A stretch of 64,000 nucleotides of DNA, from positions 27,776,001 through 27,840,000 of the forward strand of contig OZ024750.1 of assembly GCA_964016885.1 (NCBI GenBank), written 5' to 3'. Origin of the DNA: Eledone cirrhosa (taxonomy: Eukaryota). Position 1 is the stretch's first letter, and every line of letters starts with the position of its first letter. Position numbers and translations under genes: made by a program. The notes beneath the pieces are model-generated. The model did no database searches, was not told where the DNA came from, and saw nothing but the letters and a program-made list of their open reading frames with translations. Positions 4,780-52,986 of this stretch are shown piece by piece.

Positions 4780-7700
4780 ATCTAGATGTATTTTCCGTAT
4801 CTAGGAATATTTTACTTATCTAGAAATATTTACCGGATCTAGAAGTATTTCCCATATCTAGGAATATTTTCCATATCTAGGAGTATTTTCCGTATCTAGG
4901 AGTATTTTCCGTATTTAGGAGTATTTTCCGTATCTAGGAGTATTTTCCGTATCTAGGAGTATTTTCCATATCTAGGAGTATTTTCCGTATCTAGGAGTAT
5001 TTTCCGTATCTAGGAGTATTTTCCATATCTAGGAGTATTTCCCATATCTAGGAGTATTTTCCGTATCTAGGAGTATTTTCCGTATCTAGGAGTATTTTCC
5101 ATATCTAGGAGTATTTTCCGTATCTAGGAGTATTTTCCGTATCTAGGAGTATTTTCCGTATCTAGGAGTATTTTCCATATCTAGGAGTATTTTCCGTATC
5201 TAGGAGTATTTTCCGTATCTAGAAGTATTTCCCATATCTAGGAGTATTTCCCATATCTAGGAGTATTTTCCATATCTAGGAGTATTTTCCATATCTAGGA
5301 GTATTTTCCATATCTAGAAGTATTTCCCATATCTAGGAGTATTTCCCATATCTAGGAGTATTTTCCATATCTAGGAGTATTTTCCATATCTAGGAGTATT
5401 TTCCGTATCTAGGAGTATTTTCCGTATCTAGGAGTATTTTCCGTATCTAGGAGTATTTTCCATATCTAGAAGTATTTCCCATATCTAGGAGTATTTCCCA
5501 TATCTAGGAGTATTTTCCATATCTAGGAGTATTTTCCGTATCTAGGAGTATTTTCCATATCTAGGAGTATTTCCCATATCCAGGAGTATTTTCCATATCT
5601 AGGAGTATTTTCCATATCTAGGAGTATTTTCCGTATCTAGGAGTATTTTCCATATCTAGAAGTATTTCCCATATCTAGGAGTATTTTCCGTATCTAGGAG
5701 TATTTCCCATATCTAGGAGTATTTTCCGTATCTAGAAGTATTTCCCATATCTAGGAGTATTTTCGATATCTAGAAGTATTTCCCATATCTAGGAGTATTT
5801 TCCATATCTAGAAGTATTTCCCATATCTAGGAGTATTTTCCGTATCTAGGAGTATTTCCCATATCTAGGAGTATTTTCCGTATCTAGGAGTATTTTCCAT
5901 ATCTAGAAGTATTTCCCATATCTAGGAGTATTTTCCATATCTAGAAGTATTTTCCATATCTAGGAGTATTTTCCATATCTAGGAGTATTTTCCATATCTA
6001 GGAGTATTTTCCGTATCTAGGAGTATTTTCCATATCTAGGAGTATTTTCCGTATCTAGAAGTATTTTCCGTATCTAGAAGTATTTTCCATATCTAGAAGT
6101 ATTTCCCATATCTAGAAGTATTTTCCGTATCTAGAAGTATTTTCCATATCTAGAAGTATTTCCCATATCTAGAAGTATTTTCCGTATCTAGGAGTATTTT
6201 CCATATCTAGGAGTATTTTCCATATCTAGAAGTATTTTCCGTATCTAGGAGTATTTTCCGTATCTAGAAGTATTTCCCATATCTAGAAGTATTTTCCGTA
6301 TCTAGAAGTATTTCCCATATCTAGAAGTATTTTCCGTATCTAGAAGTATTTCCCATATCTAGAAGTATTTTCCATATCTAGGAGTATTTTCCATATCTAG
6401 AAGTATTTCCCATATCTAGAAGTATTTTCCGTATCTAGGAGTATTTTCCATATCTAGGAGTATTTTCCGTATCTAGAAGTATTTCCCATATCTAGAAGTA
6501 TTTTCCATATCTAGAAGTATTTCCCATATCTAGAAGTATTTTCCGTATCTAGGAGTATTTTCCATATCTAGGAGTATTTTCCGTATCTAGAAGTATTTCC
6601 CATATCTAGAAGTATTTTCCGTATCTAGAAGTATTTCCCATATCTAGGAGTATTTTCCGTATCTAGAAGTATTTTCCGTATCTAGAAGTATTTTCCATAT
6701 CTAGGAGTATTTTCCATATCTAGAAGTATTTTCCGTATCTAGGAGTATTTTCAGTATCTAGAAGTATTTTCCGTATCTAGGAGTATTTTCCGTATCTAGG
6801 AGTATTTTCCGTATCTAGGAGTATTTTCCGTATCTAGAAGTATTTTCCGTATCTAGAAGTATTTCCCATATCTAGGAGTATTTTCAGTATCTAGAAGTAT
6901 TTTCCGTATCTAGAAGTATTTCCCATATCTAGAAGTATTTTCCGTATCTAGAAGTATTTTCCATATCTAGGAGTATTTTCCATATCTAGAAGTATTTTCC
7001 GTATCTAGGAGTATTTTCCGTATCTAGGAGTATTTTCCGTATCTAGAAGTATTTTCCGTATCTAGAAGTATTTTCCATATCTAGAAGTATTTCCCATATC
7101 TAGGAGTATTTTCCATATCTAGGAGTATTTCCCATATCTAGGAGTATTTTCCATATCTAGAAGTATTTTCCGTATCTAGGAGTATTTTCAGTATCTAGAA
7201 GTATTTTCCGTATCTAGGAGTATTTTCCGTATCTAGGAGTATTTTCCGTATCTAGGAGTATTTTCCGTATCTAGAAGTATTTTCCGTATCTAGAAGTATT
7301 TCCCATATCTAGGAGTATTTTCAGTATCTAGAAGTATTTTCCGTATCTAGAAGTATTTCCCATATCTAGAAGTATTTTCCGTATCTAGAAGTATTTTCCA
7401 TATCTAGGAGTATTTTCCATATCTAGAAGTATTTTCCGTATCTAGGAGTATTTTCCGTATCTAGGAGTATTTTCCGTATCTAGAAGTATTTTCCGTATCT
7501 AGAAGTATTTTCCATATCTAGAAGTATTTCCCATATCTAGGAGTATTTTCCATATCTAGGAGTATTTCCCATATCTAGGAGTATTTTCCATATCTAGGAG
7601 TATTTCCCATATCTAGGAGTATTTTCCATATCTAGAAGTATTTCCCATATCTAGAAGTATTTTCCGTATCTAGAAGTATTTCCCATATCTAGGAGTATTT

Positions 7701-10700
7701 TCCGTATCTAGGAGTATTTCCCATATCTAGGAGTATTTCCCATATCTAGAAGTATTTTCCGTATCTAGGAGTATTTCCCATATCTGGGAGTATTTTCCAT
7801 ATCTAGAAGTATTTTCCGTATCTAGGAGTATTTCCCATATCTAGGAGTATTTTCCATATCTAGGAGTATTTCCCATATCTAGGAGTATTTTCCATATCTA
7901 GGAGTATTTCCAATATCTAGGAGTATTTTCCATATCTAGAAGTATTTCCCATATCTAGGAGTATTTTCCGTATCTAGGAGTATTTTCCATATCTAGAAGT
8001 ATTTCCCATATCTAGGAGTATTTTCCATATCTAGAAGTATTTTCCATATCTAGGAGTATTTTCCATATCTAGGAGTATTTTCCATATCTAGGAGTATTTT
8101 CCGTATCTAGGAGTATTTTCCATATCTAGGAGTATTTTCCGTATCTAGAAGTATTTTCCGTATCTAGAAGTATTTTCCATATCTAGAAGTATTTCCCATA
8201 TCTAGAAGTATTTTCCGTATCTAGAAGTATTTTCCATATCTAGAAGTATTTCCCATATCTAGAAGTATTTTCCGTATCTAGGAGTATTTTCCATATCTAG
8301 GAGTATTTTCCATATCTAGAAGTATTTTCCGTATCTAGGAGTATTTTCCGTATCTAGAAGTATTTCCCATATCTAGAAGTATTTTCCGTATCTAGAAGTA
8401 TTTCCCATATCTAGAAGTATTTTCCGTATCTAGAAGTATTTCCCATATCTAGAAGTATTTTCCATATCTAGGAGTATTTTCCATATCTAGAAGTATTTCC
8501 CATATCTAGAAGTATTTTCCGTATCTAGGAGTATTTTCCATATCTAGGAGTATTTTCCGTATCTAGAAGTATTTCCCATATCTAGAAGTATTTTCCATAT
8601 CTAGAAGTATTTCCATATCTAGAAGTATTTTCCGTATCTAGGAGTATTTTCCATATCTAGGAGTATTTTCCGTATCTAGAAGTATTTCCCATATCTAGAA
8701 GTATTTTCCGTATCTAGAAGTATTTCCCATATCTAGGAGTATTTTCCGTATCTAGAAGTATTTTCCGTATCTAGAAGTATTTTCCATATCTAGGAGTATT
8801 TTCCATATCTAGAAGTATTTTCCGTATCTAGGAGTATTTTCAGTATCTAGAAGTATTTTCCGTATCTAGGAGTATTTTCCGTATCTAGGAGTATTTTCCG
8901 TATCTAGGAGTATTTTCCGTATCTAGAAGTATTTTCCGTATCTAGAAGTATTTCCCATATCTAGGAGTATTTTCAGTATCTAGAAGTATTTTCCGTATCT
9001 AGAAGTATTTCCCATATCTAGAAGTATTTTCCGTATCTAGAAGTATTTTCCATATCTAGGAGTATTTTCCATATCTAGAAGTATTTTCCGTATCTAGGAG
9101 TATTTTCCGTATCTAGGAGTATTTTCCGTATCTAGAAGTATTTTCCGTATCTAGAAGTATTTTCCATATCTAGAAGTATTTCCCATATCTAGGAGTATTT
9201 TCCATATCTAGGAGTATTTCCCATATCTAGGAGTATTTTCCATATCTAGGAGTATTTCCCATATCTAGGAGTATTTTCCGTATCTAGAAGTATTTCCCAT
9301 ATCTAGAAGTATTTTCCGTATCTAGAAGTATTTCCCATATCTAGGAGTATTTTCCGTATCTAGAAGTATTTTCCGTATCTAGAAGTATTTTCCATATCTA
9401 GGAGTATTTTCCATATCTAGAAGTATTTTCCGTATCTAGGAGTATTTTCAGTATCTAGAAGTATTTTCCGTATCTAGGAGTATTTTCCGTATCTAGGAGT
9501 ATTTTCCGTATCTAGGAGTATTTTCCGTATCTAGAAGTATTTTCCGTATCTAGAAGTATTTCCCATATCTAGGAGTATTTTCAGTATCTAGAAGTATTTT
9601 CCGTATCTAGAAGTATTTCCCATATCTAGAAGTATTTTCCGTATCTAGAAGTATTTTCCATATCTAGGAGTATTTTCCATATCTAGAAGTATTTTCCGTA
9701 TCTAGGAGTATTTTCCGTATCTAGGAGTATTTTCCGTATCTAGAAGTATTTTCCGTATCTAGAAGTATTTTCCATATCTAGAAGTATTTCCCATATCTAG
9801 GAGTATTTTCCATATCTAGGAGTATTTCCCATATCTAGGAGTATTTTCCATATCTAGGAGTATTTCCCATATCTAGGAGTATTTTCCATATCTAGAAGTA
9901 TTTCCCATATCTAGAAGTATTTTCCGTATCTAGAAGTATTTCCCATATCTAGGAGTAGGAGTATTTTCCGTATCTAGGAGTATTTCCATATCTAGGAGTA
10001 TTTCCCATATCTAGAAGTATTTTCCGTATCTAGGAGTATTTCCCATATCTGGGAGTATTTTCCATATCTAGAAGTATTTTCCGTATCTAGGAGTATTTCC
10101 CATATCTAGGAGTATTTTCCATATCTAGGAGTATTTCCCATATCTAGGAGTATTTTCCATATCTAGGAGTATTTCCAATATCTAGGAGTATTTTCCATAT
10201 CTAGAAGTATTTCCCATATCTAGAAGTATTTTCCGTATCTAGAAGTATTTCCATATCTAGAAGTATTTTCCGTATCTAGAAGTATTTAAGTATTTCCATA
10301 TCTAAAGTATTTTCCGTATCTAGGAGTATTTCCCATATTAGGAGTATTTTCCATATGCTTAGAAGTATTCCCATAATCTAGAATATTGCCAGCATCTAGA
10401 AGTATTTCCCATATCTAGAGTATTTTTCCATATTCTAGGAGTAGTTTATTTTCATATTCTAGGAGTATTGTTGTCATGATTCTATAATGTATTTTCCGTA
10501 TCTAGAAGTATTTTCCCAGTATCTAGGAGTATTTCCATATCCTAGGAGTATTTTTCATACTACTAGAGTATTTCCCAGTATTCTAGGAGTATTTTCCGTA
10601 TCTAAAAGTATTTTCCATATCTAGGAGTATTTTCCATATTCTAGAGTATTTTCCCAGTATCTAGAGTATTTTCCGTATCTAGAGTATTTCCCATATCAGG

Positions 10701-13700
10701 AATATTTTCCGTATCAAGAAGTATTTATCGATTTAGAAGTATTTTCCGTATCTAGGAGTATTTTCCATATCTAGGAGTATTTTCCCATATCTAGGAGTAT
10801 TTTCCATATTCTAGAAATATTTTCCATATCTAGGAGTATTTTCCATATTCTAGGAGTATTTTCCGTATCTAGAAGTATTTTCCATATCTAGGAGTATTTT
10901 CCATATTCTAGGAGTATTTTCCGTATCTAGGAGTATTTCCGTATCTAGAAGTATTTTCCCATATCTAGGAATATTTTCCGTATCAAGAAATATTTATCGG
11001 ATTTAGAAGTATTTTCCGTATCTAGGAGGTTCATTTTCCATTCTAGGAGTATTTTCCATATCTAGGAAGTATTTTCCGTATCTAGAAGTATTTTCCGTAT
11101 CTAGAGTATTTCCATATCTAGGAGTATTTTCCATATCTAGGAGTATTTCCCGTATCTAGGAGTATTTTCCATATCTAGAGTATTTTCCCATATCTAGGAG
11201 TAATTTTCCACATCTAGGAGTATTTTCCGTATCTAGGAGTATTTTCCATATCTAGGAGTATTTTCCGTATCTAGAAGTATTTTCCATATCTAGGAGTATT
11301 TTCCATATCTAGGAGTATTTTCCGTTCTAGGAGTATTTCCATATCTAGGAGTATTTTCCGTATCTAGGAGTATTTTCCATATTCTAGAATATTTTCATAT
11401 CTAGGGAGTATTTTCCATATCTAGAGTATTTTCCGTATCTAGGAGTATTTCCATATCTAGGAATATTTTCCGTATCTAGGAATATTTTCCATATCTAGAA
11501 GTATTTTCCGTATCTAGGAGTATTTTCCATATCTAGGAGTATTTTCCGTATCTAGAGTATTTCCCATATCTAGAAGTATTTTCCGTATCTAGGAAGTATT
11601 TCCATATCTAGAGTATTTCCGTATCTAGAGTATTTTCCGTATCCTAGAAGTATTTTCCATATCTAGGAGTATTTCCATATCTAGAAGTATTTTCCGTATC
11701 TAGGAGTATTTTCAGTATCTAGAAGTATTTCCCGTATCTAGGAGTATTTTCCGTATCTAGGAGTATTTTCCGTATCTAGGAGTATTTTCCGTATCTAGAG
11801 TATTTTCCATATCTAGAGTATTTCCCATATCTAGGAGTATTTTCAGTATCTAGAAGTATTTTCCGTATCTAGAGTATTTCCCATATCTAGAAGTATTTTC
11901 CGTATCTAGAGTATTTTCCATATCTAGGAGTATTTTCCATATCTAGAAGTATTTCCTATCTAGGAGTATTTCCGTATCTAGGAGTATTTTCCGTATCTAG
12001 AAGTATTTTCCGTATCTAGAGTATTTTCATATCTAGAAGTATTTTCCCATATCTAGGAGTATTTTCCATATCTAGGAGTATTTTCCATATCTAGGAGTAT
12101 TTTCCGTATCTAGGAGTATTTCCATATCTAGGAGTATTTTCCGTATCTAGAAGTATTTCCCATATCTAGAAGTATTTTCCGTATCTAGAAGTATTTCCCA
12201 TATCTAGGAGTATTTTCGTATCTAGAAGTATTTTCCGTATCTAGGAATATTTCCATATCTAGGAGTATTTTCCATATCTAGAAGTATTTTCCGTATCTAG
12301 GAGTATTTTCAGTATCTAGAAGTATTTTCCGTATCTAGAGTATTTTCCGTATCTAGGAGTATTTTCCGTATCTAGGAGTATTTTCCGTATCTAGAAGTAT
12401 TTTCCGTATCTAGAAGTATTTTCCCATATCTAGGAGTATTTTCAGTATCTAGGAAGTATTTTCCGTATCTAGAAGTATTTCCCATATCTAGAAGTATTTT
12501 CCGTATCTAGAAGTATTTTCCATATCTAGGAGTATTTTCCATATCTAGAAGTATTTTCCGTATCTAGGAGTATTTTCCGTATCTAGGAGTATTTTCCGTA
12601 TCTAGAAGTATTTTCCGTATCTAGAAGTATTTTCCATATCTAGAAGTATTTCCCATATCTAGAGTATTTTCCATACTAGGAGTATTTCCCATATCTAGGA
12701 GTATTTTCCATATCTAGGAGTATTTCCCATATCTAGAGTATTTTCCTATCTAGAAGTATTTCCATATCTAGAAGTATTTTCCGTATCTAGAAGTATTTCC
12801 CATATCTAGGAGTATTTTCCGTATCTAGGAGTATTTCCCATATCTAGGAGTATTTCCATATCTAGAAGTATTTTCCGTATCTAGGAGTATTTCCCATATC
12901 TGGGAGTATTTTCCATATCTAGAAGTATTTTCCGTATCTAGGAGTATTTCCCATATCTAGGAGTATTTTCCATATCTAGGAGTATTTCCATATCTAGGAG
13001 TATTTTCCATATCTAGGAGTATTTCCAATATCTAGGAGTATTTTCCATATCTAGAAGTATTTCCCATATCTAGAAGTATTTTCCGTATCTAGAAGTATTT
13101 CCCATATCTAGAAGTATTTTCCGTATCTAGAAGTATTTCCCATATCTAGAAGTATTTTCCGTATCTAGGAGTATTTCCCATATCTAGGAGTATTTTCCAT
13201 ATCTAGAAGTATTTCCCATATCTAGAAGTATTTTCCGTATCTAGAAGTATTTCCCATATCTAGGAGTATTTTCCATATTCTAGGAGTATTTTCCATATTC
13301 TAGGAGTATTTTCCATATTCTAGGAGTATTTTCCGTATCTAGAAGTATTTCCCATATCTAGGAGTATTTTCCATATTCTAGGAGTATTTTCCATATCTAG
13401 GAGTATTTTCCATATTCTAGGAGTATTTTCCGTATCTAAAAGTATTTTCCATATCTAGGAGTATTTTCCATATTCTAGGAGTATTTTCCGTATCTAGGAG
13501 TATTTTCCGTATCTAGGAGTATTTCCCATATCCAGGAATATTTTCCGTATCAAGAAATATTTATCGGATTTAGAAGTATTTTCCGTATCTAGGAGTATTT
13601 TCCATATCTAGGAGTATTTTCCATATCTAGGAGTATTTTCCATATTCTAGAAATATTTTCCATATCTAGGAGTATTTTCCATATTCTAGGAGTATTTTCC

Positions 13701-15008
13701 GTATCTAGAAGTATTTTCCATATCTAGGAGTATTTTCCATATTCTAGGAGTATTTTCCGTATCTAGGAGTATTTTCCGTATCTAGAAGTATTTCCCATAT
13801 CTAGGAATATTTTCCGTATCAAGAAATATTTATCGGATTTAGAAGTATTTTCCGTATCTAGGAGTATTTTCCATATCTAGGAGTATTTTCCATATCTAGG
13901 AGTATTTTCCGTATCTAGAAGTATTTTCCGTATCTAGGAGTATTTTCCATATCTAGGAGTATTTTCCATATCTAGGAGTATTTCCCGTATCTAGGAGTAT
14001 TTTCCATATTCTAGAAATATTTTCCATATCTAGGAGTATTTTCCACATCTAGGAGTATTTTCCGTATCTAGGAGTATTTTCCATATCTAGGAGTATTTTC
14101 CATATTCTAGAAATATTTTCCATATCTAGGAGTATTTTCCATATCTAGGAGTATTTTCCGTATCTAGGAGTATTTTCCATATCTAGGAGTATTTTCCGTA
14201 TCTAGGAGTATTTTCCATATTCTAGAAATATTTTCCATATCTAGGAGTATTTTCCATATCTAGAAGTATTTTCCGTATCTAGGAGTATTTTCCATATTCT
14301 AGAAATATTTTCCATATCTAGGAATATTTTCCATATCTAGAAGTATTTTCCGTATCTAGGAGTATTTTCCATATTCTAGAAATATTTTCCATATATAGGA
14401 GTATTTTCCATATCTAGGAGTATTTTCCGTATCTAGGAGTATTTCCCATATCTAGGAGTATTTTCCATATTCTAGAAATATTTTCCATATCTAGGAGTAT
14501 TTTCCATATCTAGGAGTATTTTCCATATCTAGAAGTATTTTCCGTATCTAGGAGTATTTTCCATATTCTAGAAATATTTTCCATATCTAGGAGTATTTTC
14601 CATATCTAGGAGTATTTTCCATATCTAGAAGTATTTTCCGTATCTAGGAGTATTTTCCATATTCTAGAAGTATTTTCCGTATCTAGGAGTATTTTCCGTA
14701 TCTAGGAGTATTTTCCGTATCTAGGAGTATTTTCCGTATCTAGGAGTATTTTCCATATTCTAGAAATATTTTCCATATCTAGGAGTATTTTCCGTATCTA
14801 GGAGTATTTTCCGTATCTAGGAGTATTTTCCGTATCTAGGAGTATTTTCCGTATCTAGGAGTATTTTCCGTATCTAGGAGTATTTTCCATATCTAGGAGT
14901 ATTTTCCATATCTAGAAGTATTTTCCATATTTAGAAGTATTTTCCATATTTAGGAGTATTTTCCGTATCTAAGTATTTTCCGTACCAAGGAGTATTTTAC
15001 CATATTTT
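4780..15008. repeat. Satellite array, 19-bp unit TATTT(T/C)CC(G/A)TATCTAG(G/A)AG, ~540 copies, with higher-order repeats
   Basis: Direct reading; edges are degenerate and variant units recur at fixed offsets. Confidence 0.97.
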
Positions 15009-15240: not shown

Positions 15241-15243
<3 letters not shown>

Positions 15244-15770
15244 AATGGAATAGAGTGAAACGAAATTTCATTTCTCACTCTTAGTACGGCACTTACTTAA
15301 ATGTAAGTATGTATGTATGTATATACATACATATATGTATACAGACGTACAGTAGTATGTATATATATACATACATGCACACATATATATATGCACGTAT
15401 CGGTTTACCGAACATTTATTATAATGCTCGGTCTGTTTGTTTGTAGACAAACAAACAGCCCGAATTACGCCGTACAGTGTTTAGGCAACCACGCCACCTT
15501 TTTGTTCAACACTGACACAGGAACGATGTACTAGTTTCAAGCTTATTAGCTATCGTCAGCATCGTATACCTTCCTGCCAGATGGCGTAATGCGGGCTGTT
15601 TGTTTGTTTACAAACAAACAAACCGAGCATTATAATAAATGTTCGGTAAACCGATACGTGCATATATATAAGTGTGCATGTATGTATATATATACATACT
15701 ACTGTACGTCTGTATACATATATGTATGTACCTATACATACATACATACTTACATATATATTTATATATA
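15241..15770 (-). mobile_element. HHR element family C, copy 1: long arm with tail (-) plus tail-less inverted arm (+)
   Basis: 15313-15470 is inverted at ~15583-15750; homologous to 25576-26064; flanked by (TA)n. Confidence 0.85.
15523..15565 (-). ncRNA. Minimal type I hammerhead ribozyme
   Basis: ACGAUG-CUGACGA-U-AGCU-AAUA-AGCU-U-GAAAC-UA-GUA^CAUCGU: 6-bp stem I, intact core, palindromic stem III ACUAGU. Confidence 0.9.
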
Positions 15771-15952
15771 TAGGAAAAAGTATGACCCCGACGGCAGAGC
15801 TCAAGCCGTTTCGACGGCTATATAGCCGTCAAAACGGCTTGAGCTCTGCCGTCGGGGTCATACTTTTCCATTTTTCCTACTCTACTACCCTAAGTATTGA
15901 GTACTCTGGTGCGTTATGGTCCATCTGGTTCATTACCACAATTCCTTTGTTA
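15771..15952 (+). mobile_element. Family A (TA)n-targeted asymmetric hairpin element
   Basis: Palindrome centred ~15821 (GACCCCGACGGCAGAGCTCAAGCCGTTT / AAACGGCTTGAGCTCTGCCGTCGGGGTC) plus a one-sided tail. Other copies at 19890, 24054, 24331, 26346, 27899, 28249, 52163, 54127, 57137, 60337. Confidence 0.85.
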
Positions 15953-16018: not shown

Positions 16019-16432
16019 TTTCTGAATTTGTTTAGCAAGATTCTTTATCTGAAAACGTGTGTTGAAACCGATATTGTTATACTTTGGGAGGGTCATGTTG
16101 CCAATAAGAAACACACGCACCAGTTGCTTTCACTTCAATTTATTATAAATTAAATTTATAAATTTAGGAATTTGCAAAAACAAGATGGCGTAGGACAGAA
16201 CAAAGGAGAGGCACAAAAACAAAGAAAAGAATCCCCAGTCACTGAAGAGGTCACAGAATGTGTGACGAAAGAACTTTGACAATATCTGAACAATCGTCTG
16301 GTTGTGGAACCAACCAACCAACCGGAAATTTATAAATTCTTAAATTTATAAATTTAATTTATAATAAATTGAAGTGAACAACTGGTGCATGTGTTTCTTA
16401 TTGGCAACGTGACCCTCCCAAAGTATAACAAT
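16017..16432. mobile_element. HHR element family E, inverted arms with a tail on the left
   Basis: 16073-16165 is inverted at ~16340-16432; homologous to 52378-52952 and 50105-50290. Confidence 0.85.
16238..16280 (+). ncRNA. Minimal type I hammerhead ribozyme
   Basis: GUCA-CUGAAGA-G-GUCACA-GAAUG-UGUGAC-GAAAG-AA-CUU^UGAC. Confidence 0.8.
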
Positions 16433-23396: not shown

Positions 23397-24330
23397 GAAC
23401 CAAATAAAAATATATATATTTTTTTAAATAAGACTCCAGTTGCATTTTCGATTTCACCTTTTTTTCTTTATACTTTCACTCGTGTAGGACACCTCGGTTA
23501 TTTTTCATTTTGTAAAAAGAACCTCACTTTCTAATATATATATACATACATATATATACTTATATATACATATATATAAGTATATATAAGTTATTCCGGG
23601 TTGAATCGGAGGTAACCACAGTAAATTTCTCACGAATGAAACAGTTCTAGTCCTGTAGAAGCAGCTCTTCTATATTAAAACTATATATATATATATATAT
23701 AATGTTTTGATTGAGAAAACCGGAAAATCCAGAAACTTGGATCCCGTCCATTCCCAAGCTTGTTGGATAAACGGTGCGGTATCTGTAGCTTTCCCTGAAC
23801 AATTTCACATCGCTTTCTTTATTGCTCTATCTTTACATTGTTAAAGTACATTTCAGGTTGTTTTTTTACTTTACTCCACTTCGTTTTATTATATTTCTGG
23901 CTAAAGTTATAACGACACGACGTTAAATGACGGGAGGTGGGGGGTGTATAGACAGAAATACGCCTATGCTGACATATACATATACACATACGTAAATACA
24001 TACATACATACATACATATGCAGATACATACATATATATGTATATATATATATAACGAAGGAGATGTGGTAAGGAACCAGATAGACCATAACGCACCAGA
24101 GTACTCAATACATTTCATTTCACTTTCAATGTTTGACCGGCTCCACTCACTCCCTCATTGTTCTACAGGCAAGTTCAGCCACCCCTACCACCCACCAATT
24201 GCCATGACAGACTTATTTGTGTTTACAACAAATGTTGACCAATCCTCATGACAACTACAATCTTCCCATGTAAGGAAGTACCCCTTGACAAGTTCAGCTA
24301 TTTATTTACCAGGCTAAAAATTCTAATTTA

Positions 24331-24411
24331 GTCCAGAAGTAGCCGTCGAAACGGCTTGAGCTCTGCCGTCGGGGCCATACTTTTTCCTATATATATACAT
24401 ATATATATATA

Positions 24412-24452
<41 letters not shown>

Positions 24453-24536
24453 TTAGTCCAGAAATAGCCGTCGAAACGGCTTGAGCTCTGCCGTCGGGGC
24501 CATACTTTTTCCTATATATATACATATATATATATA

Positions 24537-24577
<41 letters not shown>

Positions 24578-24624
24578 TTAGTCCAGAAATAGCCGTCGAA
24601 ACGGCTTCAGCTCTGCCGTCGGGG
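24331..24624 (+). repeat. Three tandem family A heads, period 125 bp
   Basis: GTCCAGAA.TAGCCGTCGAAACGGC at 24331, 24456, 24581. Confidence 0.9.
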
Positions 24625-25392
24625 GCAACAGATTCCTGAAACACTTGTACACTGCCTCTAATATATACCATTGTACACTGCATCTAATATATATCATTAT
24701 ACACTGCCACTCTACACTGCCTCTAATATATATCATTGTACACTGCCTCTAGTGTATATATTTCTACAGGGGTGTCTGTAATGATGACACAGATGGCGTT
24801 TGTCACGAGTTTAGGTTTTTGTTCAAACTTGGCAGAGGGTTTCTTAAGGTGGTTAACTCTGTTGAGCAGTTCATACTCTTTTTTGGGCCTGGCCATGACA
24901 GATCTCGACTACAAATGATGCTCAATGCCAAACTAGATAATATATATATATATAGTAGAATAATCGAGTATCGAAAAATCGGCGCACGAGTTCACGATAA
25001 GCAAAATTCGATATGAGTGGCAGAGGGCTCAATAATTCAGATAAATCAGAGCTATAACTATCGTTAAAATACCAGCACACATAGATTATGTCTAAAATCA
25101 ACCATACGACCGAAAAATTACGATCTGGAAGATTTGGGTCACTCAGATAAAATATCAATAAATCAATAAATCATATGAATGTAATATATTATATAACTGA
25201 AAATGCTTTCTGTTGCTTCACTGAGTTTCAAGGTTTCCCACTGATCACGCAACAGGAGTTGAGTTGCAAGATGAGGGGAAAGCTTTGAAAGGTAGTGTAG
25301 AAACAAAGTTATTACAATAATATATATATAAAGACTCTCGTTTGTGTAAAGTCACGAGCACAAACCGTTAAAGTTCACGGTCGAATATTTTC

Positions 25393-25473
<81 letters not shown>

Positions 25474-25659
25474 ACGTACATACATATATGTCTACAGACG
25501 TACAGTAGTATGTATATATATACATACATGCACACATATATATATGCACGTATCGGTTTACCGAACATTTATTAAGTACTAAGAGTGAGAAATGAAATTT
25601 CGTTTCATTCTATTCCATTTATCGTTTTCGGTGCGCCCGGCCGACTAGACTCACTCGAT

Positions 25660-25707
25660 ATGCAAATTAGGCTGCTCAGCCGTTAATATGCATAAGGAAA
25701 TTATATA
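25660..25707 (+). promoter_or_regulatory. Putative compact snRNA/U6-type promoter (octamer + TATA)
   Basis: ATGCAAAT at 25660-25667 and TATATA at 25702-25707; same spacing as family D. Confidence 0.5.
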
Positions 25708-25741
25708 CTTTCAGACGTTCAACCATCTGGCAGGAAGGTAT

Positions 25742-25784
25742 ACGATGCTGACGATAGCTAATAAGCTTGAAACTAGTACATCGT
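25742..25784 (+). ncRNA. Minimal type I hammerhead ribozyme (predicted cleavage 25778/25779)
   Basis: Identical to 15523-15565. Confidence 0.9.
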
Positions 25785-26077
25785 TCCTGTGTCAGTGTTG
25801 AACAAAAAGGTGACGTGATTGCCTAAACACTGTACGGCGTAATTCGGGCTGTTTGTTTGTCTACGAACAAAGAAACCGAGCATTATAATAAATGTTCGGT
25901 AAACCGATACATGCATATATATATGTGTGTGCATGTATGTATATATATATACATACTACTGTACGTCTGTATACATATATGTATGTACGTATACATACAT
26001 ATATTTAGGTATCAGCCGTACTAAGAGTGAGAAATGAAATTTCGTTTCATTCTATTCCATTTATATATATATATATA

Positions 26078-26250
<173 letters not shown>

Positions 26251-26253
26251 GTA

Positions 26254-26345
<92 letters not shown>

Positions 26346-26347
<2 letters not shown>

Positions 26348-26549
26348 ACAAAGAAGGTGTGGTAAGATACCAGGTGGACCATAACGCACCAGAGTACTCA
26401 ATACTTAGGGTAGTAGAGTGGGTAATAGGAAAAGAGTCAGGACCCCGACGGCTGAGCTCCGGCCGTTTCGACAGCTAGGTTTGAACAGTTCAGATCTAGT
26501 TGTCGAAACTGCCGGAGCTCAGCCGTCGGGGTCCTGAATCTTTTCCTAT
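26346..26549 (-). mobile_element. Family A hairpin element (second subfamily)
   Basis: Palindrome centred ~26487 with a tail on the left; same subfamily as 52163-52331. Confidence 0.85.
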
Positions 26550-43468: not shown

Positions 43469-43504
43469 TCTTCTGATGAAGGACTAGCGTCCGAAACATT
43501 AAGA
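43469..43504 (+). ncRNA. Minimal hammerhead motif, stem III imperfect
   Basis: UCUU-CUGAUGA-A-GGAC-UAGC-GUCC-GAAAC-AUU-AAGA. Confidence 0.7.
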
Positions 43505-44425: not shown

Positions 44426-44859
44426 ATGGAAGTTTTAAACTTTAATACTAAAATGAATCGACTACATTTCTTAAGAAGTATATTGTGTATTGCTTTAGTG
44501 AAAATGTAGGTTAGGGTGTCTGTGTAAGTCTACATTGAATTTCAAATTTTTATTCTGGTATTACACGTTTTACGGATACCAAGTGCAAATGAAATATAGT
44601 AAGTTATCACAAAAATCAGCGATAACAACCGAATCGATTGAATTTCGTCTGTTATATATACCTAACTCGTCCTATTGACTGAGTGCTCTCACACTTGAAT
44701 ATTTCTACCAACTTATATTACAGTATATATATATATATATATATATATATGCATAGAAATTTCGTATTTCGAAAGAAATACGATTTTAGGAAGCCGCAGC
44801 TATGCGAACACCGAGGGCTAACGCCCTCTGGTGTTGTCCAGCAGAGCTAGGGGGACAAC

Positions 44860-44899
44860 CGTCTATGCATTTCAGGCTTGAAGGGCCATCGTCAGGACG
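44860..44899 (-). ncRNA. Minimal type I hammerhead ribozyme
   Basis: CGUC-CUGACGA-U-GGC-CCUUCAA-GCC-U-GAAAU-GC-AUA^GACG; palindromic stem III AUGCAU. Confidence 0.88.
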
Positions 44900-44946
44900 A
44901 TCCCTCCCACTGCTCTGCGTCTGCTGGACTTGAAAACAGCCGAGAA

Positions 44947-44995
44947 TATATAGTTTTCTAGTCTGTGTAAATGAGGTGATTAATCTCATTTGCAT
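44947..44995 (-). promoter_or_regulatory. Putative compact snRNA/U6-type promoter (octamer, PSE-like TCACCTCA, TATA)
   Basis: ATGCAAAT (44995-44988), TCACC, then TATATA (44952-44947). Confidence 0.5.
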
Positions 44996-45181
44996 ATGAA
45001 GCTGCATAAGTTGGCTCAACTTATAATAGAGTAGAAATAGGATTTCGCTTCAAGCATAGCTTTATACAATATGTATAGAAATTTCGTATTTCGAAAGAAA
45101 TACGATTTTAGGAAGTTGTAGCTATGCGAACACCGGAGCTAACGCCCTCTGGTGTTTTCCAGCAGAAGCAAGAGGGACAAC

Positions 45182-45221
45182 CGTCTATGCATTTCAGGCT
45201 TGACAGGCCATCGTCAGGACG
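45182..45221 (-). ncRNA. Minimal type I hammerhead ribozyme (second copy)
   Basis: Same core and stems as 44860-44899; differs only in loop II. Confidence 0.88.
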
Positions 45222-45440
45222 ATATATATACATATATATATATGTAGATAAATCTACCAAGAGTTTACGGTAGTGTCCAATCCGTATGAAGAACTCAATG
45301 TAATCCGGATATCATGGAAAGAAGAGATGCAATGAAAAATCACTTTCGGTGAAAGATAAACGGAATACAGAGTCAAGATAAAATATTAAAAAAATAATGA
45401 ATAAAACAATGAAACAGTTCCTTATATTAAACAAAAAAAG

Positions 45441-52379: not shown

Positions 52380-52946
52380 TTTCTGAATTTGTTTAGCAAG
52401 ATTCTTTATCTGAAATCGTGTGTTGAAACCGATATTGTTATACTTTGGGAGGGTCATGTTGCCAATAAGAAACACACGCACCAGTTGCTTTCACTTCAAT
52501 TTAATTTAATATATATTTATAAATTTACAAATTTATAAATTTCTGGTTGGTTGGTTGGTTCCACAACCAGATAGTTGTTTATATATATATAGTCATAGTT
52601 CTTTCGTCACACACTCTGTGACCTCTTCAGTGACTGGGGATTTCTTTCTTCGTTTCTGTGCCTTTCCTTTCTTCTATCCTACGCCATTTTTCAGAAAAAT
52701 GGCGTAGGATAGAAGAAAGGAAAGGCACAGAAACGAAGAAAGAAATCCCCAGTCACTGAAGAGGTCACAGAGTGTGTGACGAAAGAACTATGACTATATA
52801 TATATAAACAACTATCTGGTTGTGGAACCAACCAACCAACCAGAAATTTATAAATTTGTAAATTTATAAATATATATTAAATTAAATTGAAGTGAAAGCA
52901 ACTGGTGCGTGTGTTTCTTATTGGCAACATGACCCTCCCAAAGTAT

Positions 52947-52952
<6 letters not shown>
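52378..52952. mobile_element. Family E palindrome (centre 52693, ~260-bp arms) with HHRs at 52591-52635 (-) and 52751-52795 (+)
   Basis: AGUCA-CUGAAGA-G-GUCACA-GAGUG-UGUGAC-GAAAG-AA-CUA^UGACU; a ~55-nt tail on the left arm only. Confidence 0.9.

Positions 52953-52986
<34 letters not shown>

Follow-up and report, generated by a model that had tools for sequence, protein, structure and literature searches.

How a short repeat carrying a ribozyme and a promoter-like region came to be preceded by part of its own tail is the question raised by this locus of the octopus Eledone cirrhosa, located in a window of 64,000 nucleotides (contig OZ024750.1, positions 27,776,001 to 27,840,000; positions below are those of the window). 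A sequence-only reading had described a 442-nt monomer with a 47-bp terminal redundancy, as expected if reverse transcription had run slightly more than once round a circle or along a tandem transcript. Our analysis leads us to consider it highly probable that the focal locus is a two-armed insertion of a non-LTR retrozyme, likely mobilised by a Penelope-like element and bringing along its own promoter-like module.

Within the window, positions 25576-25622 and 26018-26064 proved to be exactly identical over 47 bp, giving a unit of 442 nt as had been read. One complete retrozyme unit occupies 25623-26064 (+ strand; tandem units elsewhere measure 416-446 nt), and the stub at 25576-25622 (+) is a 5'-truncated remnant of the tail of a preceding unit. 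Directly before this stub, an inverted second arm (25457-25574, - strand; 94% to 25886-26007), absent from the earlier description, covers unit positions 264-385 and ends at a tail-less fixed 3' end. The two-armed insertion lies inside (TA)n, with tracts at 25396-25456 on the left flank of the target and 26062-26347 on the right, while the tail (26005-26064, +) was located by end mapping and spans two fixed 3' ends lying 59-60 nt apart in the family. Inside the unit, an octamer-containing motif (25659-25670, +), which matches one lying upstream of host Pol III type-3 genes, is followed 42 nt on by a TATA-like box (25702-25707, +), and a type I hammerhead motif (25742-25784, +) is surrounded by a predicted extended stem I (25727-25795, +). 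The GC of the region is 0.35 and no non-repetitive open reading frame of at least 120 amino acids lies over the unit, which is thus non-coding. A tRNA-derived SINE was rejected, since neither ARAGORN nor Rfam detected a tRNA-like head in the unit; the Rfam matches obtained there, none of them anywhere near the gathering score, were microRNA models on hairpins rich in TA. One variant is common to both focal arms and present in 8 of 193 other ends, which is no more than suggestive. No circle of unit length could come from the focal locus, which has a single ribozyme and is probably a dead end. Of note, several copies of a short foldback repeat with (TA)n on its flanks (15773-15870, 24326-24694 and 26430-26545) adjoin retrozyme insertions, and the window also holds a 19-bp satellite of 537 copies (4780-15005).

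At the scale of the 3.0-Gb genome, the exact 32-nt ribozyme core has 9,768 matches (control, 0), dispersed on all large contigs, and a full query made of tail, promoter and ribozyme matched 39 other loci among 40 candidates scored, of 1,700. Insertions were sampled from the first 100 listed of the 9,768 core matches, all on one contig within its first 42 Mb; merging of overlaps gave 80 regions, in which 81 insertions were mapped. As these were sampled by the ribozyme core alone, conservation of the core among them is circular and was left unused. The sample comprises 39 one-armed, 34 two-armed head-to-head and 8 complex insertions, the inverted-arm layout of 25457-25574 being hence shared by 34 of the 81. 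The tail-promoter junction is found in 61 of them and ribozyme-to-ribozyme tandem units number 2,806 (0 in the control), so that both the junctions and the multimers envisaged by the sequence-only reading exist among genomic copies, and the junction is not unique to this locus, as a chance nesting would make it. The 47 bp themselves, however, are not a defined redundancy: in 70 arms of the sampled insertions the piece of the preceding unit is 5-404 nt long, and the focal overlap is one ordinary draw from this spread.

What is defined in this family is the 3' end. Of 63 ends measured, 61 coincide with one or other of two fixed sites separated by 59-60 nt, and 3' ends nearly always run into (TA)n. 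When both ends of a two-armed insertion lie at the fixed sites, the tail is present at exactly one of them (23/23), the remaining 11 of the 34 having one end elsewhere; among 30 loci from the full-query search, three two-armed insertions (L002, L004 and L017) are tail-less at both ends and none is two-tailed. That unit position 1 might be a natural 5' boundary was also considered and rejected, a pile-up of 15 stops there being an alignment artefact, as the arms continue into the tail. At least two ribozymes in one arm are found in 14 of the 81 sampled insertions, and only such loci, with two tandem ribozymes, could be sources; possible source arrays hold from 7 to over 30 units. Satellite-scale arrays of the family with higher-order patterns were also observed (G000:C1, 51.77-51.79 Mb, 53.36 Mb and 70.06-70.08 Mb).

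A second copy in the window, also head-to-head, was delineated by comparison to the focal unit: its main arm (15241-15584, - strand) covers unit positions 101-442 with the tail, and its inverted arm (15583-15765, +) starts at unit position 214 and reaches the tail-less end. The hammerhead had been said to be the same in both copies while the flanks differ, and constraint on the ribozyme had been deduced. The first part is correct, 25742-25784 being the reverse complement of 15523-15565, but identity extends over 90 nt (25723-25812) and includes the flanks, and the left flank of the second copy differs only because of its 5' truncation and its joining to its own inverted arm. Since only 5 of 183 positions differ between the two copies, identity is expected (for 43 identical bases, P = 0.30), and in 30 young copies the ribozyme is no less variable than its flanks (13 variants in 1290 positions versus 88 in 7050, p = 0.58). 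Constraint cannot be derived from these two copies and this claim was abandoned.

Regarding the ribozyme, the motif comprises a 6-bp stem I, a CUGACGA core, a 4-bp stem II closed by a U-U mismatch, GAAA, and a stem III of 1 bp with a palindromic loop, the ACUAGU palindrome already noticed being located at 25772-25777; the cut is predicted after GUA, at 25778/25779. Because Rfam returns no hammerhead match, neither at gathering score nor with E up to 10, the assignment rests on core motif and pairing. One pair of stem I co-varies between subfamilies (U-G 49, A-U 43 and G-U 5 of 103) and is kept in 97 of 103, which is one inherited event, and in a sister lineage the changes are confined to core position 7, loop 2 and stem I. 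In folding predictions, the active fold of the monomer (-9.5 kcal/mol) is 8.5 kcal/mol worse than an inactive one (-18.0 kcal/mol), and the stem III self-duplex reaches -4.8 kcal/mol. Such a weak stem III with cleavage as a dimer is plausible, and ribozymes of this kind are reported to act as dimers in amphibians (Cervera and de la Pena, 2014, PMC4209133; Cervera and de la Pena, 2020, PMC7229834). Other hammerhead-like motifs are present in the window. On the - strand at 44750-45230, a hammerhead repeat unrelated to the focal one has two ribozymes 322 nt apart, a U-U at the base of stem II, a palindromic stem III loop and an octamer (44996) with a TATA box 43 nt on; another motif lies at 43473 in a third sequence context; and a 523-bp perfect palindrome (52432-52954) has in each arm a hammerhead-like motif with a CUGAAGA core, with a further copy at 16242 and others beside loci L151 and L160.

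On sequence grounds, this family would belong to the non-LTR retrozymes, with a type I hammerhead, short non-coding tandem units, thousands of copies, GC below 50% and no LTR, as in the metazoan representatives (Cervera and de la Pena, 2020, PMC7229834; Li, Clavereau and Pollet, 2026, 10.64898/2026.07.22.740005), with which it further shares co-existence with Penelope-like elements and a predicted self-paired circle. The metazoan units are described as 150-450 bp long and arranged as dimers to multimers (PMC7229834), the unit studied here being at the top of this range. Compared with the axolotl types, its ribozyme combines both weak features, namely the 1-bp stem III with palindromic loop and the U-U of stem II. 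In contrast to Xenopus retrozymes, 24 of whose 57 families have pLTR homology (10.64898/2026.07.22.740005), no such homology was found here, and neither the two-armed, one-tail footprint nor an internal promoter is described for metazoan non-LTR retrozymes in the available parts of these two accounts.

This footprint is the one known from Penelope elements, which are recognised by tandems that are only partial, by a copy both inverted and truncated on its 5' side, and by a tail restricted to one end (Craig et al., 2021, PMC8557442). A purified Penelope protein cleaves AT-rich DNA and elongates both strands, with initiation at two sites inside the RNA, between which the tail lies (Frangieh et al., 2024, PMC11167929). 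A link between retrozymes and Penelope-like elements had been proposed (PMC7229834) and is supported by phylogeny (10.64898/2026.07.22.740005). The genome of E. cirrhosa holds many elements with reverse transcriptase and GIY-YIG domains that end in (TA)n; one of them (L160, autonomous and, by Pfam, of the same family as L152) lies in (TA)n as a two-armed insertion, a single end of which bears a tail, of 50-55 nt, and L152 and L156 are also autonomous elements with this footprint. From the insertion footprint, mobilisation by this class can thus be proposed, the likeness encompassing partial tandems, 5' truncation, the inverted 5' copy, the one-end tail, AT-rich or (TA)n targets and the hammerhead carried by the repeat (PMC8557442; PMC11167929; PMC4209133). 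The family nonetheless differs from Penelope-like elements, as far as these sources describe them, by the lack of an ORF, a tail of 59-60 nt versus the published 30-40 (bp), and a ribozyme of canonical size instead of the minimal form. It also differs from the autonomous elements checked here, with which it has no sequence in common: no repeat sequence shared with an autonomous partner was found in 50 loci (20 with long ORFs, 30 with GIY-YIG) of 10,597 candidates, and repeat matches at those 50 loci are co-located repeat copies.

The mechanism that we propose begins with the octamer-TATA module, which would drive transcription with read-through into the next unit. Paired ribozymes would then cleave, a single stem III being too weak, and ligation would yield a 442-nt circle holding the promoter. 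A Penelope-like reverse transcriptase, acting in trans, would copy circular or uncut multimeric RNA while priming on each side of a break in (TA)n, and at the focal locus the longer arm would stop shortly into a second unit, leaving the 47-bp overlap. Because the unit would be copied round past its own start, the upstream promoter, which a linear transcript would lose, would be kept.

The first step depends on the nature of the module, which we compared with the promoters of host small-RNA genes, U6, U6atac, RNase MRP and tRNA-Sec on one side and U1, U2 and U5 on the other (regions upstream of L031-L043, L076-L086, L122-L124 and L129-L148). Seven distinct intact host promoters (three U6, U6atac, RNase MRP and two tRNA-Sec) have the octamer-containing motif at -76 to -79 and a TATA box at -30/-31. 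Outside these seven are 4 U6 cluster copies with an identical promoter, 6 cluster copies with a promoter insertion, 2 U6 and 5 U6atac copies that are without the motif and likely retrocopies, and 4 low-scoring tRNA loci; in the six interrupted U6 copies (L037, L038 and L040-L043), a repeat is inserted at the TATA box and the TATA-proximal stretch is duplicated. The motif is absent from all 16 Pol II snRNA promoters (U1, U2 and U5), and a Pol II snRNA-type promoter was rejected by sequence, as these genes use other motifs. The host Pol II snRNA promoters have a CAGT-containing motif near -58, mostly with a TATA-like box at -30. As the host TATA lies at -30/-31, the module would predict a start near 25729-25732, at the 5' edge of the ribozyme stem. 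The order octamer, TATA and ribozyme core has 19,082 genomic matches versus 1 in the control; in a shuffle test of the module, the count was 2 of 20,000. Among the first 100 matches listed, the module occurs in four unrelated repeat families, with spacings of 42, 43, 40 and 47. Besides the focal family and the repeat at 44750-45230, two hammerhead-like families with an octamer-TATA module, one at the host spacing of 47, were observed at L255, L256 and L243.

Alternatively, the module might be a relic or a Pol II promoter and no working Pol III promoter, the element relying on read-through transcription, a reading to which we give slightly less than an even chance. Indeed, the octamer-TATA spacing of 42 in the retrozyme is 4-6 nt short of the host 46-48 (42-43 in the two main families), more than 90% of arms pass the predicted start, and newt satellite 2 provides the precedent of an snRNA promoter read by Pol II (PMC2220036). 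A run of T6-T7, as long as host Pol III terminators, is present in 34 of 50 junctions, although the subfamily of the window has only T4 at the junction. Runs of this length and the short spacing both weigh against a simple read-through by Pol III. Against a relic or a Pol II promoter stand the specificity of the motif for host Pol III genes (7 intact promoters versus 0/16 Pol II snRNA promoters) and the occurrence of motif, TATA and ribozyme core in order in four unrelated families, one of them at spacing 47. Independently of the retrozyme, the host promoters with an octamer near -77 and a TATA box are usable for U6 expression vectors in E. cirrhosa.

The second step, the template, can be approached through the 5' stops. 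At the cleavage site, 1 stop was found versus 1.9 expected (56 passages), whereas the predicted start is mildly enriched, with 9 versus 4.1 expected (103 passages, p = 0.023 uncorrected), 94 of these 103 passages continuing beyond it. Since few arms stop at either site, most templates ran through both, which fits a circle or an uncut multimer; cut linear monomers are disfavoured, because arms do not stop at the cleavage site, and primary transcripts made from the internal promoter, had they been the main template, would have ended the arms at the start. With the recurrent junction and the existence of multimers, this bears out the earlier proposal of reverse transcription over more than one unit, on a circle or a tandem transcript.

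The same element and Penelope-type enzyme could however use as template a linear multimer that stays uncut, produced when Pol II, or transcription from promoters in the flanks, runs across tandem arrays, with circles, if made, as a by-product and the overlap as an ordinary Penelope partial tandem. This we hold to be a serious possibility, though well short of an even one. It is helped by arrays of 7 to over 30 units as possible sources, by the predicted weakness of the monomer ribozyme, by the T6-T7 runs, which favour Pol II, and by the Penelope system itself, which needs no ribozyme cleavage and has unprocessed RNA as main substrate according to the available account (PMC11167929). Individual loci point in both directions: the units of L263 are heterogeneous, unlike copies of one circle, and the arms of L004 differ by 12%, while in L264 the two arms together comprise seven full and two terminal units, identical save one base and sharing two variants missing from five compared loci, and L261 has three private variants common to both arms. 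The near-identity of the nine units of L264, with their common private variants, speaks against a linear multimer, as does the accumulation of coral, mussel and axolotl retrozymes as circles (PMC7229834). Between the two templates we lean modestly to the circle. The predicted self-paired circle reaches -134 kcal/mol versus -101 +/- 6 for 40 shuffles. Reads spanning 25778/25779 in RNA-seq, suggested earlier as a check, could not discriminate, because ligation there would restore the genomic sequence and circle-junction reads would equal uncut reads. Two further signs were tried and rejected. RNA-editing scars seemed indicated by an excess of A>G over T>C (68 versus 39, p = 0.012), but C>G versus G>C is skewed too (p = 0.0007). 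A circular-dimer template was considered from ABAB arrays; the breakpoint of L169 lies mid-unit and not at the cut site, and local duplication explains it, while L161 may reflect either a circular dimer or a local duplication.

That two insertions would have nested here by chance, or that the locus would be a satellite or foldback element arisen at the DNA level with no RNA step, is extremely improbable: large arrays with higher-order patterns do show DNA-level amplification and L169 has its mid-unit breakpoint as from local duplication, but the junction in 61/81 insertions, fixed 3' ends with random 5' ends, which is the polarity expected of target-primed reverse transcription, and the dispersal of copies on all large contigs speak against it.

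The preferred reading of the focal locus as a two-armed, probably Penelope-mobilised retrozyme insertion leaves room for a broader and clearly more tentative proposal, which we regard as rather unlikely in its full extent: a class of retroelements owning a U6-type (Pol III type-3) upstream promoter, retained because a Penelope-type enzyme, starting on both sides of a break in (TA)n, copies a ribozyme-cut circle beyond the start and on through the promoter, at least four unrelated families using this layout here. The promoter of the schistosome hammerhead satellite is of the tRNA type. This satellite and newt satellite 2 are, like the present family, tandem hammerhead repeats with a promoter inside the unit (PMC2220036; PMC7229834). 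Newt satellite 2 is cleaved as a dimer and its snRNA promoter is read by Pol II, unlike the Pol III type-3-like module of the retrozyme; the schistosome satellite has a Pol III promoter, whereas the module here matches upstream U6, U6atac, MRP and tRNA-Sec promoters. Internal promoters are thus already known from these satellites. In the present observations, it is the footprint and the promoter that are worthwhile. In a literature search of incomplete coverage, no paper was found describing this family as a cephalopod or octopus retrozyme, or as an octamer or Pol III-promoter retrozyme.

The route of animal retrozymes from a circle to a Penelope-type reverse transcriptase had been proposed earlier and, in the available text, was not shown from insertion structure. 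The family studied here offers footprints that can be counted, namely a single tail in each two-armed insertion, arms that do not stop where the RNA would be cut, and units that are identical across arms, and its young copies are suited to an in vitro test. If the module works, it would explain both how a repeat without protein is transcribed wherever it has landed and how an upstream promoter survives retrotransposition.
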